Assembly (NCBI GenBank): GCA_964545415.1
Contig: CAZJFP010000001.1
Coordinates: 9,786-73,785 of the forward strand
Length of the DNA stretch: 64,000 bases
Reading direction: 5' to 3'
From: an uncultured Candidatus Peribacteria bacterium
GTDB taxonomy: Bacteria > Patescibacteriota > Gracilibacteria > Absconditabacterales > Absconditicoccaceae
In this document: piece by piece, positions 19,775 through 54,413 of the stretch
How the letters are laid out: each line of letters opens with the position of its first letter
Numbering within the stretch: the stretch's first letter is position 1
Program-made: the position numbers and the translations under genes
The notes under the pieces: generated by a model
What the model was told of the DNA's origin: nothing
Databases searched by the model: none
Seen by the model: only the letters and a program-made list of their open reading frames with translations

Positions 19775-20650
19775 ATGGCTCTTACTCCCGAGCTCCAGAC
19801 TATTGCGGATACGTTAAGACAAGAAAAGGTCATCGGTTTATTGGCGCCGAGTTTCCCGGTGGATTTTTGATATCCGGAGATCATCATCAATCTCAAGATG
19901 ATCGGCTGCGAAAAAGTCGTCGAACTCACCTACGCTGCGAAGTTGATAAATATGGAATACGAGAAAATCCTCAAAGAGCATCCTGATAAACAATATATCT
20001 GTCCCAACTGCCCTACTATCGTGAAGATGATAGAATTCAAATATCCAGAGCTCAAAGAAGATATCATCAATGTCGCATCGCCCATGGTCGTTATGCATAG
20101 ATTTGTAAAAAAACAATACGGTCCCGACTGGAAAACGCTTTTTATCGGACCATGCCTAGCGAAGAAACTGGAAGCGAAACAATATGGCATCGATTACGCT
20201 ATCACATTCAAAGAATTACAGGATATTTTCGATTATTATAAAGAGAACAATATCCCGTCCAAGGAATTTACCTTTTCTGTCACCGAAGACGGCACGCCCG
20301 ATTTCGATAAATTCTACAATGATTATACTAAAGTCTATCCGCTCGCTGGATGAGTCGCTGATAGCATGCATTACAAAGGTATCCTGACAAAAGATCAGAT
20401 TCTCGTAATCGACGGACCGAAAGAGATAGATGCAGGCATACAGGAATTCAAAAACAATAAAAACATCAAATTCCTCGATATCTTAGCCTGCGAATGATGA
20501 TGTATCGGCGGACCATGAATGATGTCCAAGGAGCCGTTGGAAGTAAAAAAACAGAAAGTTCTTGAGTATAAACACTATTGTAAAAAAGATAAAATCTGAT
20601 CCAAACTCGGCAAGTTCGAATACGGAGAAGGACTCGATATCACCAGATAA
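19775..20650 (+). CDS. [FeFe]-hydrogenase large-subunit C-terminal-domain-like protein (stand-alone, 291 aa)
   Basis: It has APSF..., ICPNCPTIVKMIE, FIGPCLAKKLE and DILACEGGCIGGPG. These resemble the three H-cluster cysteine motifs. The two glycines after ACE are TGA. Confidence 0.65.
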
Positions 20651-20654
20651 ATTT

Positions 20655-20785
20655 AATGAAAAATTAAAAATTAATAATTAATAATGAATAATGTTGGTGT
20701 CGCATATTTATTAGCTATTGTAAAATTACAATAGTTCATTTGAGCAATTCTGCCATCATTCATCTTTCATTTTTCATCATTCATT
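20655..20785. repeat. ~130-nt palindromic intergenic element, family B, copy 1
   Basis: The left arm is aattaataatgaataatgttggt, the central mini-palindrome is ctattgtaaaattacaatag, and the right arm is catcattcatctttcatttttcatcattcatt. The right arm abuts the hemW ATG. Confidence 0.8.
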
Positions 20786-26499: not shown

Positions 26500-26643
26500 T
26501 TTAAAGTTTTGTATATTGGTTTTTAGTATTTTCGCTTGAATTTTCAACCACATTACTCATAAATCATTGATGATTTGTAATAGTCCATAAGGAGACAATT
26601 TCGACATTGTTAGCTTTTAGTTGTTAGTTGTTAATTACGTTTA

Positions 26644-27747: not shown

Positions 27748-29961
27748 TTGTTTTTGGATTACATGCAACTCTTCAAGAGAGTCCTATTGTCCCTATTCCC
27801 TGATGAAATCATTGCACAGACCATAAATCCCGCAAGCATGTTTATCTCGTTTATCTCTACCAAAGAGTTTTTTTCCGTAATCAACAGAAAAATCGTAGAA
27901 AACTATAAACTGAATCTTTTTGACGTTACGCTTGACCCCTTCGAATTCAAGATAGGATTCGGCGAACAATCCAATATCAAGCCCAAAGATATAGATGCGT
28001 ATTATAGTTATTGCGCCACTGCTAATCTCAATGGCTACAGGTTTTTTTCACCTGCAAATGTCTCCAATAATCTTGCATTGGTAGTCGCACTCTATGTCAA
28101 AGATATTTTCAGACAGTATCCTCCTGAGTATTATCTCAACTTTCTCTATGCTGTCTTTCTTTTGAGTTTTGTCTTTCTCGCAAGACTAAAAATCTTCCCA
28201 TACAAAGATAGAGAAAAAAATTACAACTGGTTCATAGAGACCATGTTTTCGTTCTATGAGTTCGTTTTTCAACAGACAGGAAAAAAAGCTGATCCAGTCA
28301 TCATCAAAGCATTAAAAAAGGAATTATTGAATCAGATAGAAGTCTTTTTGACGTTATTCTCCGTATACAAAAATCTCAATACGCTATTCGTACACCCCGA
28401 TATTGTAGACCAAGATATCTATGCTTGGCTCTTTTATGATGAACTCAAAAGCGATGCTAAATCCATTTATGCAGAATTTATCGCCAACCACAAAAACTAT
28501 ACGTCCAAGAAGAATTTTTCAGCGGTAGAGACCAAAATCATGCAATCCATTCTTCCTGCAGATATCCTTCTCAGATATCTCTTCATCGATTCGGATATGG
28601 GACTCATTACCGATATAGTAATTGCAAAGATCTTCGACAAAAAGATCCTCGACACCTTTATCAAAAGTTTCCGTACTGACGAATCACAGCTTGAGCCTTT
28701 CTTACTTTACATTACTGATTATAGAAATTTCAAAAAAAACTTCTTTTCAGGAGTACAAAAATATATAATCACCATGTTCAGAGACCAGGATAATAAGACA
28801 CCCATCAAAGAGGATTTGGATGATCTCATGTCCTCTATCGGAGAAGATGTCGAAAATATCGAGAGTTTCAAAATTCCAGAAAGAATCAAAAAGGAATCCA
28901 AAATGATGGAAAAACTCCTCAATTTCTACATTACCCTCATTGGCGGCTCTTGGCTTTCTAGAGGTGATACATTTTTTTTGAGATTATTTAGAAAACCCAT
29001 AATCCATCAACTCAGCACGTCCGAAGATAATCTCGACGAAAAAAATTATACGCTCCTCTATTATGGAGGACTTCTCTACCAATACGGCAAGAATGTGTTC
29101 TTCTATAAACATACAGCAGAAAATGTTAGAGCTGGTAAGCAGAAATTCATCCTGCCACATAAGACGGATATCAAAAATATCTATTCCAATATTGCTTTAC
29201 TCAAGTTCTTCGATGAAACATTCCTCGCAACACTCTTGCAGGATATCAATCCAAAAGATATCAGACTCTATATCAAAAACAAAAAACTTATAGAGCTTTT
29301 CAAAGGGCTCACTGGCCAAGAGATCTCCAATATGGTAAAGCTCTCTGATAATCAATTCATAGAATCTGCATATCAGGATATTGCAAAAAATCTTGAACAC
29401 AAACATTTTACCAAAATCCTAAAAAAAGAACTGCATGAGCAGGATATCTATCATCTCAAAGAGAACATTTACAATCTTGATTTTCGAGTCAGCAAAGCTT
29501 TCTTCAGATCCATAACTCAAAAAAATATTCTTCTAAAAAACGACTATTCTGATCTCGTGATCATGGGAATCTTCGCTACCATTAGGGAAACGCTCTTTGG
29601 ATTCTTGATCTACCTCACCTATGTGAAAGATGAAGCTAAGGAAAAAAACATTCATACTGACCTCCTTCTCAAACTCTATGTTCAAGACATCTTGAATATC
29701 GATGAATATTATCATAGCAAGATCATTGATATCATCACTACTCTTCAGGCAGATTTCAATGAAATCATCAAACATCGGATAGAAATAGATGACAATCACG
29801 ATTATCTCAAAATCGCTTATGAAAACTGGATTTTTTTCTCCAAGGGAAACAAAAGCCTTGAAGAGATCAAGAAGAACATTATCAGTGAGGACATCATCCG
29901 ATTCAAATGATTCCTCAAGAATATCACGTATTATAACAAAAGATTCCTTATGCCACAATAA
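27748..29961 (+). CDS. Large hypothetical protein (~737 aa)
   Basis: A 720-aa standard-code ORF extends through one TGA to TAA 29959-29961. It is rich in K, F, Y and I. I recognised no motif. The start may be ATG 27763. Confidence 0.6.
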
Positions 29962-29971
29962 ATGCTTCGCA

Positions 29972-30093
29972 AATTGAAAATTAAAAATTAAGAATGAATA
30001 ATGTTGGTTTTGCTGAAACGAACTATTGCATTCTACAATAGCAAATAATAAGACAAAACAAAAATCATTCATCTTTCATTGTTCATCATCCAT
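29972..30093. repeat. Family B element, copy 2
   Basis: The sequence aattaagaatgaataatgttggt ... ctattgcattctacaatag ... atcattcatctttcattgttcatcatcc has the same architecture as copy 1. Confidence 0.8.
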
Positions 30094-30113
30094 TTATATA
30101 GTTATATAAAGTC

Positions 30114-53038: not shown

Positions 53039-53839
53039 TTACGATCCGATCGCCATTCTAACGAACGCAAGGACTTTCATGTCGGCAGGAAGTATTTCCT
53101 TGACCTTCTTGGCTCCGTCCCTGATATATTCCTGCTCAAGCAGAACGTTTTCCGCCAACGCCTTCTTGATCTTGCCGTCGACGATCTGAGCTATCATAGC
53201 TTCCGGCTTGCCGGCTGCCTTGAGTTCAGCTCCGAATTCTTCTGTCATTTTAGCTATTTCGTCCTTATCGACTTCATCGAATGATACATAGGTAGGATTC
53301 ATAGCAGTCACCTGCAAAGCAACTTCCTTGGCAGCTTCATCATTTCCTCCTTCAAAGAAAACCAAAGTCGCAACCTTATTTCCTGGATGATTGTAGATGA
53401 ACGCTTTTTTGGAAGTCACCAAAACGCCTCCTATTTTCATATTTTCTCCTGTCTTGCCCATAAACTCTTTGACTTCATTTTCTACTGTCTCAGCTAATGT
53501 AGGATCAAGATGTTCCAATGCAGAGATTTCTTTATCTCCTGCAGCAATCTTTTCGAGAATAGAATCGAACAATGCTTGAAAATTTTCGTTTTTTGCAACG
53601 AAATCTGTCTCACAAAGCAATTTGAGACCTACGGTCTTTCCGTTTTTCTCGACAATCTTGACGATGCCTTCCTTGGTTTCTCTTTCAGCCCTATTTCCTG
53701 CTTTTGCGATACCTTTCTTTTTGAGGATTTCTTGTGCTGCTTCCAGATTGTCACCTGCTTCAGCCAATGCTTCCTTGCAGTCCTTGAGAGGAGCAAAAGT
53801 GATCTCCCTCAATTGTTTCAATAGTTCTATATTGGACAT
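53039..53839 (-). CDS. tsf: Elongation factor Ts
   Basis: It has LKQLREITFAPLKDCKEALAEAGDNLEAAQEILKKKG (the UBA-like N-terminus). The 266-aa ORF is uninterrupted. Confidence 0.9.
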   Translation of the reverse strand: MSNIELLKQLREITFAPLKDCKEALAEAGDNLEAAQEILKKKGIAKAGNRAERETKEGIVKIVEKNGKTVGLKLLCETDFVAKNENFQALFDSILEKIAAGDKEISALEHLDPTLAETVENEVKEFMGKTGENMKIGGVLVTSKKAFIYNHPGNKVATLVFFEGGNDEAAKEVALQVTAMNPTYVSFDEVDKDEIAKMTEEFGAELKAAGKPEAMIAQIVDGKIKKALAENVLLEQEYIRDGAKKVKEILPADMKVLAFVRMAIGS

Positions 53840-53844
53840 AATAT

Positions 53845-53960
53845 CAATTAATAATTTAAAATTAATAATGAATAATGTATGATTTGTTTAGTTATTGACT
53901 ATAGCCTACAATCGCAATTGTCCCATCATTTTTCATTGTTCATTATTCATTTTTCATTTC
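53845..53960. repeat. Family B element, copy 3
   Basis: The sequence is aattaataatgaataatgtatga ... cctacaatcgcaattg ... catcatttttcattgttcattattcatttttcatt. It overlaps the 3' end of CDS 53943..54413. Confidence 0.75.
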
Positions 53961-54413
53961 TTTTTTTGGTTCTTCCATTTTAACTTCGAAGAGGGTCATA
54001 ATTCGCCCGCCTAGTGCATGGAATATCGCCATCTTACTTTGTTCCTCGATAGTATATTTACCATCTCGGGCACGTTTGATGAATATACCCATAAAAACCA
54101 CCATTACAATAACCAAAAATATCGGGAGATACTTGATGATAGGGAGTAGCATAAATACAGAAGTCGCTACCACTAGAAGCAGAAATATTGCCCACCATCC
54201 CAATGCTTGCTTGAGATGAAAAGATTCAAAATCACTCTTCTTTTGGTTATTGAGCGCTACGACGATGATTCCTATCAGGAGATACATCATCACTGCTCTC
54301 TTTTTCTCCGTACTGCTAGGCGTATACACCTCTTTGGAAGGTGATGCGGCAGCAATCGTTTCTAACGTTTGCCCAACAGCGTCGGACTTGATTGGTTCTT
54401 CCATATGCATCAA
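53943..54413 (-). CDS. Small integral membrane protein
   Basis: This 156-aa ORF has three hydrophobic segments. Its last codons overlap the right arm of a repeat element. Confidence 0.55.
   Translation of the reverse strand: MMHMEEPIKSDAVGQTLETIAAASPSKEVYTPSSTEKKRAVMMYLLIGIIVVALNNQKKSDFESFHLKQALGWWAIFLLLVVATSVFMLLPIIKYLPIFLVIVMVVFMGIFIKRARDGKYTIEEQSKMAIFHALGGRIMTLFEVKMEEPKKEMKNE

Follow-up and report, generated by a model that had tools for sequence, protein, structure and literature searches.

The intergenic repeats described here are best read as ORF-less miniatures of a foldback cassette, the full form of which is ~460-480 bp long and carries one PF05635 gene. They appear to be tolerated at gene boundaries and to have been recruited later by their neighbours. 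We put the probability of this reading at about 0.62. What is new is the origin of the element, namely a PF05635 (IVS-type) cassette.

The preliminary description had recorded four copies of the repeat in the window, which is the whole 64-kb stretch of DNA analysed and a piece of contig C1 of the host genome (G000). The assembly comprises 1.08 Mb in 34 contigs with 36-38% G+C and an estimated completeness of 97.8%; the 23S gene is missing from it and a gene for RNase III is encoded. As the ORFs stay open only when TGA is read as a sense codon, G000 uses code 25, in which UGA is glycine (SR1). Our own gene set, made of crude code-25 calls, holds 1,022 genes with 89% of the sequence coding. Shine–Dalgarno-like 4-mers lie upstream of only 4% of these genes, as against 13% in random 19-mers. 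The leaders are T-rich and G-poor, with 44-56% T and 7-11% G at positions -12 to -24. Translation initiation in G000 seems to be independent of Shine–Dalgarno pairing.

All four copies were found where they had been reported, with slightly refined bounds (Table 1). A composite pattern of the left-arm word, a gap, CTATNG, a gap and AATMG has exactly four matches in the window, one per copy, and does not occur in any of 100 dinucleotide-preserving shuffles. Each of the shared parts that had been named was seen again: a left arm AATTAATAATGAATAATG followed by TTGG or TATG, a central mini-palindrome CTAT.G...CAATAG, and a right arm built of TTCATNN heptads. Two copies were said to lie at or near start codons, and this holds, with copy 1 ending one base before the hemW ATG and copy 2 ending 19 nt before that of nrdR. 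The reported overlap with the end of a membrane-protein gene is likewise real. The right arm of copy 3 (53943-53960) doubles as the end of a gene for a 156-aa protein, providing the stop and the five codons before it. This gene is located on the minus strand at 53943-54413 and encodes three hydrophobic segments. The count of four stands for the window but undercounts the family, as there are 54 full-length copies genome-wide and, within the window itself, a half-element variant. This variant consists of the inner-right segment and an arm of GTTAGTT words, which represent a second arm dialect inside the window. A further observation concerns a short GCTTCGC module at 29962-29971, directly before copy 2. 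GC-rich modules of this kind (ATGCTTCGC or GCTCAGCCTACGGCTTCGC) lie outside the left arm in three copies (window 29962-29971; C13:7070-7083; C20:15740-15754), and in G031 the same module is present as a complete hairpin (GCTTCGC/GCGAAGC). Such a module may mark a sub-family, or act as a small terminator carried along with the element.

Table 1. Elements and associated features, given in window positions unless a contig is named.
Feature	Positions	Strand	Score (bits)	Context
Copy 1, full mini-element	20652-20785	+	79.7	Fe-hydrogenase-like gene (stop 20648-20650) to hemW (ATG 20786)
Copy 1, left arm	~20652-20693			
Copy 1, inner left	20694-20714			
Copy 1, core palindrome	20715-20734			
Copy 1, inner right	20735-20754			
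Copy 1, right arm	20755-20785			
Copy 2, full mini-element	29972-30094	+	71.5	732-aa gene (stop 29959-29961) to nrdR (ATG 30114)
Copy 2, core (CTATTGCATTCTACAATAG)	30023-30041			
Copy 3, mini-element	53845-53960	+	53.2	tsf (EF-Ts; start-codon complement 53837-53839) to end of 156-aa membrane-protein gene
Copy 4, mini-element in rplJ 5′ UTR	56434-56563	+	63.5	Between L10 leader and rplJ start (complement 56406-56408)
Rfam L10 leader RF00557, complete	56556-56686	-	47.3	
Partial/variant copy	26572-26636	-	20.6	Model positions 2-65; divergent spacer
Full-length cassette (L008), intact PF05635 ORF, TTCAT-type arms	C8:23740-24230			Co-directional neighbours
Full-length cassette (L042), intact PF05635 ORF, TTCAT-type arms	C8:19350-19850			Co-directional neighbours

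An nhmmer profile was built from the four window copies, refined once and run on the whole G000 genome. It recovered 67-74 loci, 54 of full length and ~20 partial, with nhmmer E-values of 1e-30 to 1e-10. When the arms are extended for as long as the 7-nt periodicity holds, element length ranges from 112 to 159 bp (median 126 bp). Taken as a whole, the consensus forms a nearly perfect palindrome composed of two arms of tandem 7-nt words (TAATKAA/TTCATNN), an inner stem and a conserved centre (CTATTGTAA..TTACAATAG). Its left half begins with an A-rich flank and continues through three to more than five TAATKAA heptads, ending in TAATGAATAATG, to TTGGAA-TTGT...TTATGAAC. The core follows as CTATTGTAA, 2-6 nt and TTACAATAG. 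The right half runs from GTTCATAA...ACAA-TTCCAACA through TTMATTA heptads to a T-rich flank, and in the flank profile the two sides are marked by an A-run and a T-run, respectively. The number of heptads differs from copy to copy, and a non-repetitive inner region of ~60 nt with the specific core is common to the 54 loci. The core pattern occurs 36 times in G000 and 0-4 times in shuffled genomes. The suspicion that further copies might share nothing beyond AT-rich low complexity fails, since 54 copies have retained the core. When a sequence-only covariance model was run on 121 genomes of the class, with no more than 27 copies counted per genome, the family turned up in this genus only.

According to our code-25 gene calls, all 54 full copies are intergenic and nearly fill their spacers. 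The median distance is 9 nt from the stop codon and ~18 nt (18.5) from the start codon, and in thirteen cases the end of an arm extends into the final codons of a gene. The copies had been described as sitting in spacers whatever the direction of the flanking genes. This is borne out by 40 tandem, 8 convergent and 5 divergent placements among 53 copies, the corresponding numbers for all G000 spacers being 622, 187 and 179. Tandem spacers thus hold 75% of the copies as against 63% of all spacers. Within them, the weak orientation of the element is evenly divided, with 20 copies in the same and 20 in the opposite direction.

The evidence for the origin of the element comes from nine PF05635 ORFs in G000 (23S rRNA IVS protein/Avd-like four-helix bundle), all above the Pfam cut-off. 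Each is flanked by inverted short-word arrays, the word varying by cassette. Two of these ORFs, on contig C8, share AATGAAT/ATTCATT arms, the GAACTATTGT leader and a ..TTCC.. right junction with the minis. Over its first 61 nt, which comprise the arms, the leader and CTATTGT, the mini consensus can be aligned with the 5′ end of the C8 cassettes, as far as the ATG of the ORF. Its right half corresponds to the final codons of the ORF, followed by ..ACAA..TTCC.. and the right arm. The core palindrome itself is found inside the 3′ end of the C8 PF05635 ORF, as CTATTGT, 13 nt and ACTATAG. The shared arms, leader and core indicate that the 130-nt element is an ORF-less miniature of an IVS-type cassette. 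As CTATTGT is present as direct repeats in the leader and near the 3′ end of the ORF, a deletion between them would yield the architecture of the mini. One of the C8 cassettes resides between ORFs of 435 aa and 200 aa, putatively two subunits of one enzyme.

The C8 protein (P0001, 111 aa) matches TIGR02436, “four helix bundle protein”, and PDB 2rld (E = 6e-23). Searches of PHROGs and PADLOC returned no match, and a known defence or phage protein was rejected as its identity. Between the two C8 ORFs, 39 codons differ synonymously and 14 non-synonymously, which argues that the PF05635 protein is under purifying selection. To our knowledge, PF05635 has no known catalytic activity and is not a known transposase. 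A search of G000 (97.8% complete) for the domains RVT_1 (PF00078), Y1 transposase (PF01797) and TnpB found none of them. Between 1 and 15 PF05635 ORFs are present in each of 30 genomes of the genus. Inverted word arms flank 29 of the 37 such ORFs examined, with arm scores that exceed the 95th percentile for control genes (Mann-Whitney p = 1e-18). Full-length cassettes are predicted to fold with a terminal stem of 18 to ~40 bp around the ORF. Across the class, PF05635 genes were detected in 71 of the 121 genomes sampled, with up to 16 per ~1-Mb genome; 14 well-known control genomes yielded a single gene, in Bacteroides only.

Comparison with relatives reveals gain, loss and replacement at the same sites. 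Twelve species were compared at the hemW site. The mini is present in G000, G007, G012 and G017; G004 has the same core with TTATCAT arms, and G005 has arms only. In G013 and G016, the same junction holds a 457-463-bp cassette with an intact PF05635 ORF. An unrelated small gene is located there in G002 and G003. The site is empty in G006, with 32 nt, and in G001, where the spacer measures 5 nt and the upstream gene runs into the hemW start. On the tree of the flanking genes, which is mostly unresolved, these states show a scattered distribution. At the empty site of G001 (L038), the upstream stop overlaps the hemW start (ATGATTAG). The ancestral state at hemW was probably a translationally coupled pair, later split by the element.

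The element at rplJ is found in G000 and G038, and probably in G004. An empty, conserved spacer of ~39 nt is found in at least 10 species, and other species carry different word-hairpins (TTATCAT, TTCTGAA, ATAAAAT). The L10 leader that is split from rplJ by a 130-nt element provides a natural test of regulation across an inserted hairpin. All 13 species that were examined have a word-armed hairpin at the nrdR site. The core is present in some of them only, many orthologous sites being without it. Here, both arm words change together, as AATGAAT/ATTCATT, AACTAAC/GTTAGTT and AGTGAAA/TTTCACT. Such strong matching of left and right words between lineages suggests that both arms are renewed in concert or that the whole element is replaced. 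As for the occurrence of different arm words at the same sites, local generation or allelic replacement by recombination could fit as well as transposition.

Evidence of recent spread comes from three copies (C13:12013, C13:30942 and C20:10658) that are 92-97% identical in the non-repetitive inner region, the family median being 68%. Their flanks are unrelated, and the likeness begins at TAATT and stops at TTCATT. It follows that minis recently spread, or were converted, as minis. The marks of mobility named in the preliminary description were found in part. Empty sites exist in relatives at hemW and rplJ, and target-site duplications are absent from every junction examined, including the three youngest copies and the rplJ insertion, and from the flank profile. 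A single metagenome scan revealed no near-identical strain, the best match having 72% protein identity. Metagenomic orthologues of the C20 site are variously empty, equipped with the same core and GTGCTAA arms, without the core, or armed with G-rich AGGAACN words. This last state was seen in three contigs (L120, L128 and L130), upstream of the orthologue of G000 C20:9510-10619, where the hairpin arms read AGGAACN/GTTCCNN. The presence of G-rich words in the same spacer implies that arm composition is not tied to AT-richness.

Some of the older copies are under constraint. Fourfold-degenerate sites in the flanking genes are 0.39-0.54 identical between G000 and its nearest relatives, with 0.39-0.43 for nrdR/G008 and 0.44-0.54 for tsf/G007, chance being 0.25-0.29. 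Orthologous elements are 83% identical at the hemW site (G017), 84% at the nrdR site (G008) and 88% at the tsf site (G007), and non-orthologous copies at most 73%, although gapped identities of low-complexity arms are inflated (shuffled null ~0.57-0.61). The argument for constraint is therefore carried by the ungapped identical blocks. At the tsf site, arm blocks of ~40 and ~36 nt (lengths read by eye) are letter-for-letter identical between G000 and G007, and they include locus-specific word variants common to five further species. Since the orthologous copies change more slowly than fourfold-degenerate sites, they are not neutral junk, and at least these are under purifying selection. Several copies have persisted far longer than neutral DNA would.

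The question of what is conserved, pairing or sequence, was addressed in several ways. Most copies would form hairpins if transcribed: folding against shuffles gave a median z of -3.35, with z < -2 in 37 of 54, and the arms pair with each other in the predicted minimum-free-energy fold of 34 of 54. Within a copy, arm-to-arm complementarity amounts to 67%, compared with 65% expected from independent decay of a palindromic master. As this is not above the expectation, pairing itself is not strongly maintained in G000. Heptad periodicity and indels make alignments of paralogues unfit for the analysis of covariation, and mirrored positions were for this reason counted directly across copies. No compensatory covariation was found by this count; variation breaks pairs, and at variable positions of the central stem A·C and G·U are commoner than G-C and A-U. 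RNAalifold, applied to 24 paralogous copies, produced only a register-slipped 9-bp helix with no covariation. The strand asymmetry of G-U versus A-C gave a weak preference for the opposite strand (-24.4 vs -21.9 kcal/mol, p = 0.016), too weak to assign an RNA strand. By contrast with this lack of compensation, the core CTAT..GT/AC..ATAG is 83-98% conserved. The conserved motifs hence behave as sequence signals and not as an RNA structure maintained by compensation. No Rfam model matched the element at the gathering score or at E values up to 1, and copy 1 does not fit the promoter or terminator consensus. An intrinsic terminator was rejected as its identity: copy 1 contains no terminator-like site, the stems are AT-rich with periodic mismatches, and the canonical GC-rich terminators of G000 differ from them.

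These results bear on the two readings left open by the preliminary description, a MITE-like mobile element or a structured RNA. The former holds in substance, given the dispersed copies, terminal inverted arms, empty sites, near-identical copies and a gene-carrying relative, but the element is no textbook MITE; the latter is not supported. A conserved structured ncRNA, such as a riboswitch, sRNA or cis-regulatory leader, would accord with hairpin folding and with the copies just upstream of start codons. It is nonetheless scarcely credible in view of the empty Rfam search, the near-perfect palindromic consensus and the copies in convergent and divergent spacers; the even orientation together with the lack of compensatory covariation makes a classic structured RNA unlikely. 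A host-serving RNA hairpin that punctuates operons is a more substantial competitor. It could act as an RNase III site, an mRNA stabiliser, a weak bidirectional terminator or a means of translational coupling, the link to PF05635 being merely historical. Better folding than shuffles in most copies, the enrichment in tandem spacers, the strong constraint on orthologous copies, the A-run and T-run on opposite flanks and the RNase III gene would all agree with it, as would the overlapping stop and start at the empty hemW site of G001, where coupling would need preserving. Yet we regard this account as unlikely. It has to contend with the absence of compensatory covariation and with AT-rich, periodically mismatched stems, none of which fits the terminator consensus. 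Copy 4 lies between a leader and a start codon, where termination would be harmful, many relatives are without the element at the same sites, and canonical GC-rich terminators are already present in G000.

Conservation of sequence and not of pairing could also mean that the repeat is an array of DNA binding sites for a host protein. The 9+9-bp core palindrome would then be the operator for a dimer and the heptad arms its iterons, in the service of nucleoid organisation or of a regulon. The persistence of the core while arm words change across species, and the irrelevance of strand orientation, would suit such an array. We hold it to be improbable, because the flanking genes (hemW, nrdR, tsf, rplJ) have no common functional theme, many orthologous sites are without the core, no candidate binding protein was identified, and the same core in the PF05635 coding sequence points to shared descent rather than to an operator. 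A different objection to mobility is that word-armed hairpins might arise repeatedly in situ, through replication slippage and template switching at AT-rich gene boundaries, and converge without any transposition. The variable heptad number, the unrelated word-hairpins in the same spacer of different species, the missing target-site duplication and the absence of RVT_1, Y1 and TnpB are what such a process would leave. The inner region of ~60 unique nucleotides with its core at 54 loci is not, and neither are three unrelated loci nearly identical in their non-repetitive part or ends common to the gene-carrying form. For this family, in-situ origin is largely refuted by the shared unique core and is very improbable.

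Under the preferred reading, that of a miniature derived from a PF05635 cassette, a mechanism can be proposed. In the full form, the inverted 7-nt word arrays and the leader would constitute a stem that closes an ORF-bearing loop. The mini would keep this stem and a small CTATTGT..ACAATAG hairpin, and it looks like the product of a deletion between the CTATTGT direct repeats. Insertion would be tolerated if the element is built to be harmless at gene boundaries. Read inwards from either side, the arm consensus presents TAA in all three frames; read outwards, it contains no stop, no ATG and no G (both read by hand). The outward arm, being G-free and T-rich, would resemble the native leaders that lack Shine–Dalgarno motifs. 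Folding may re-appose the flanks, bringing a stop beside the next start, or the L10 leader beside the rplJ start. Resident arms could in this way become expression signals or coding ends of their neighbours, which would explain the purifying selection. It may be speculated that the PF05635 protein, the sole product encoded by the element, has the word-repeat arms or the core as its target and, by way of host enzymes, acts on the minis in trans.

A wider version of this proposal, which we consider distinctly doubtful, is that the PF05635 “IVS proteins” are the trans-acting factor of widespread foldback mobile elements that lack a transposase. Classical 23S rRNA IVSs would then represent only one particular outcome, that of insertion into rRNA. 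The protein would bind the arms or core and recruit host replication or repair enzymes, both arms would be renewed in concert, and the minis would be domesticated as operon punctuation in bacteria without Shine–Dalgarno pairing. Concerted renewal of the arms would explain why their words are lineage-specific yet complementary.

Correia elements of Neisseria are bacterial MITEs that duplicate TA at the target. They resemble the minis in size (~100-160 bp), terminal inverted repeats, abundance between genes, co-location with operons, hairpin-forming transcripts and presence or absence between relatives. The minis differ from them in the lack of a target-site duplication, in a gene-carrying relative without a recognisable transposase and in arms made of lineage-variable tandem heptads. 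More generally, the minis share with bacterial MITEs (reviewed in PMC3184786) a short (112-159 bp), non-coding form, terminal inverted arms (TAATKAA.../...TTMATTA), 54 dispersed copies and empty hemW and rplJ sites in relatives, but not the target-site duplication. A longer relative shares their ends, and its sole gene is PF05635, which is not a known transposase.

Other repeat families present partial likenesses. REP elements and BIMEs are also extragenic palindromes at gene ends; operons tolerate them, and they have been proposed to act in mRNA stability or termination (PMC3733652). REP elements differ in being 20-40 bp long, GC-rich, tagged with GTAG or CGTC and dependent on a Y1 (RAYT) transposase (PMC3733652). 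A REP/RAYT identity was rejected, as PF01797 is absent from G000 and the element is AT-rich and ~130 bp long; so was a relative of IS200/IS605-TnpB, no TnpB domain being found in G000. The GGGAATC arrays of Xanthomonas and heptamer arrays of cyanobacteria (PMC4692102) and the TAACTGA repeats (PMC4679880) are similarly intergenic and consist of 7-nt words in tandem. Those of Xanthomonas are frequently arranged in convergent pairs with the potential to form stem-loops, and have no link to known mobile elements (PMC4692102). Unlike the present family, the arrays of both studies have no conserved unique core between arms, and their words are G-rich, with a proposed G-quadruplex role. Neither PMC4692102 nor PMC4679880 mentions IVS, S23 or four-helix-bundle proteins. 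A palindromic element of the Rickettsia type, which is in frame within coding sequences, was also rejected: no called gene contains any of the 54 full copies, and copy 3 supplies only five last codons and a stop.

The closest resemblance is to the IVSs of 23S rRNA with a PF05635/S23p ORF, as in Coxiella burnetii and Leptospira. There, a 428-nt element has a 28-bp terminal stem that is cut by RNase III, and its origin is unclear (PMC4990558). Like the full-length relatives described here, such an IVS is a cassette of ~430-480 nt with a long terminal stem and a single PF05635 ORF of ~110-120 aa in the loop; the ORF is retained by the full-length relatives and lost from the 130-nt copies. As in IVSs, no recognisable transposase is encoded. 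Unlike IVSs, the present copies lie between protein-coding genes and not in helices 9, 25 or 45 of 23S rRNA (the 23S gene not being in the assembly), their stems are arrays of 7-nt words, and ORF-less minis are abundant, at 54 per Mb. PF05635 proteins further resemble Avd of diversity-generating retroelements in sequence and structure, and Avd is a small helical-bundle protein that acts on nucleic acid together with another enzyme (PMC10053308). Membership in a DGR (Avd + RT) was rejected, as PF00078 is absent from G000; with no reverse transcriptase in the genome, its nine PF05635 genes are not parts of DGRs.

IVS elements and their conserved ORF have been known since ~1990, with function and mechanism of spread unknown (PMC4990558), and a 2024 survey of rRNA insertions in CPR bacteria still lists the protein as uncharacterised (PMC11270868). 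PF05635 cassettes outside rRNA, accompanied by matching minis at ~50 copies per Mb, offer a concrete cis/trans pair in the form of the C8 protein and the 130-nt element. There are also consequences for the annotation of CPR/SR1 genomes, as the elements contribute C-terminal residues as well as stop codons, and come between leaders and their genes, as in the case of the L10 leader and rplJ. A contig break coincides with the hemW element in G015, which suggests that the elements may break assemblies. Finally, the rate of change in some copies is several-fold lower than at synonymous sites, which suggests that selfish hairpins have been co-opted into the gene-expression signals of a reduced, ~1-Mb genome.
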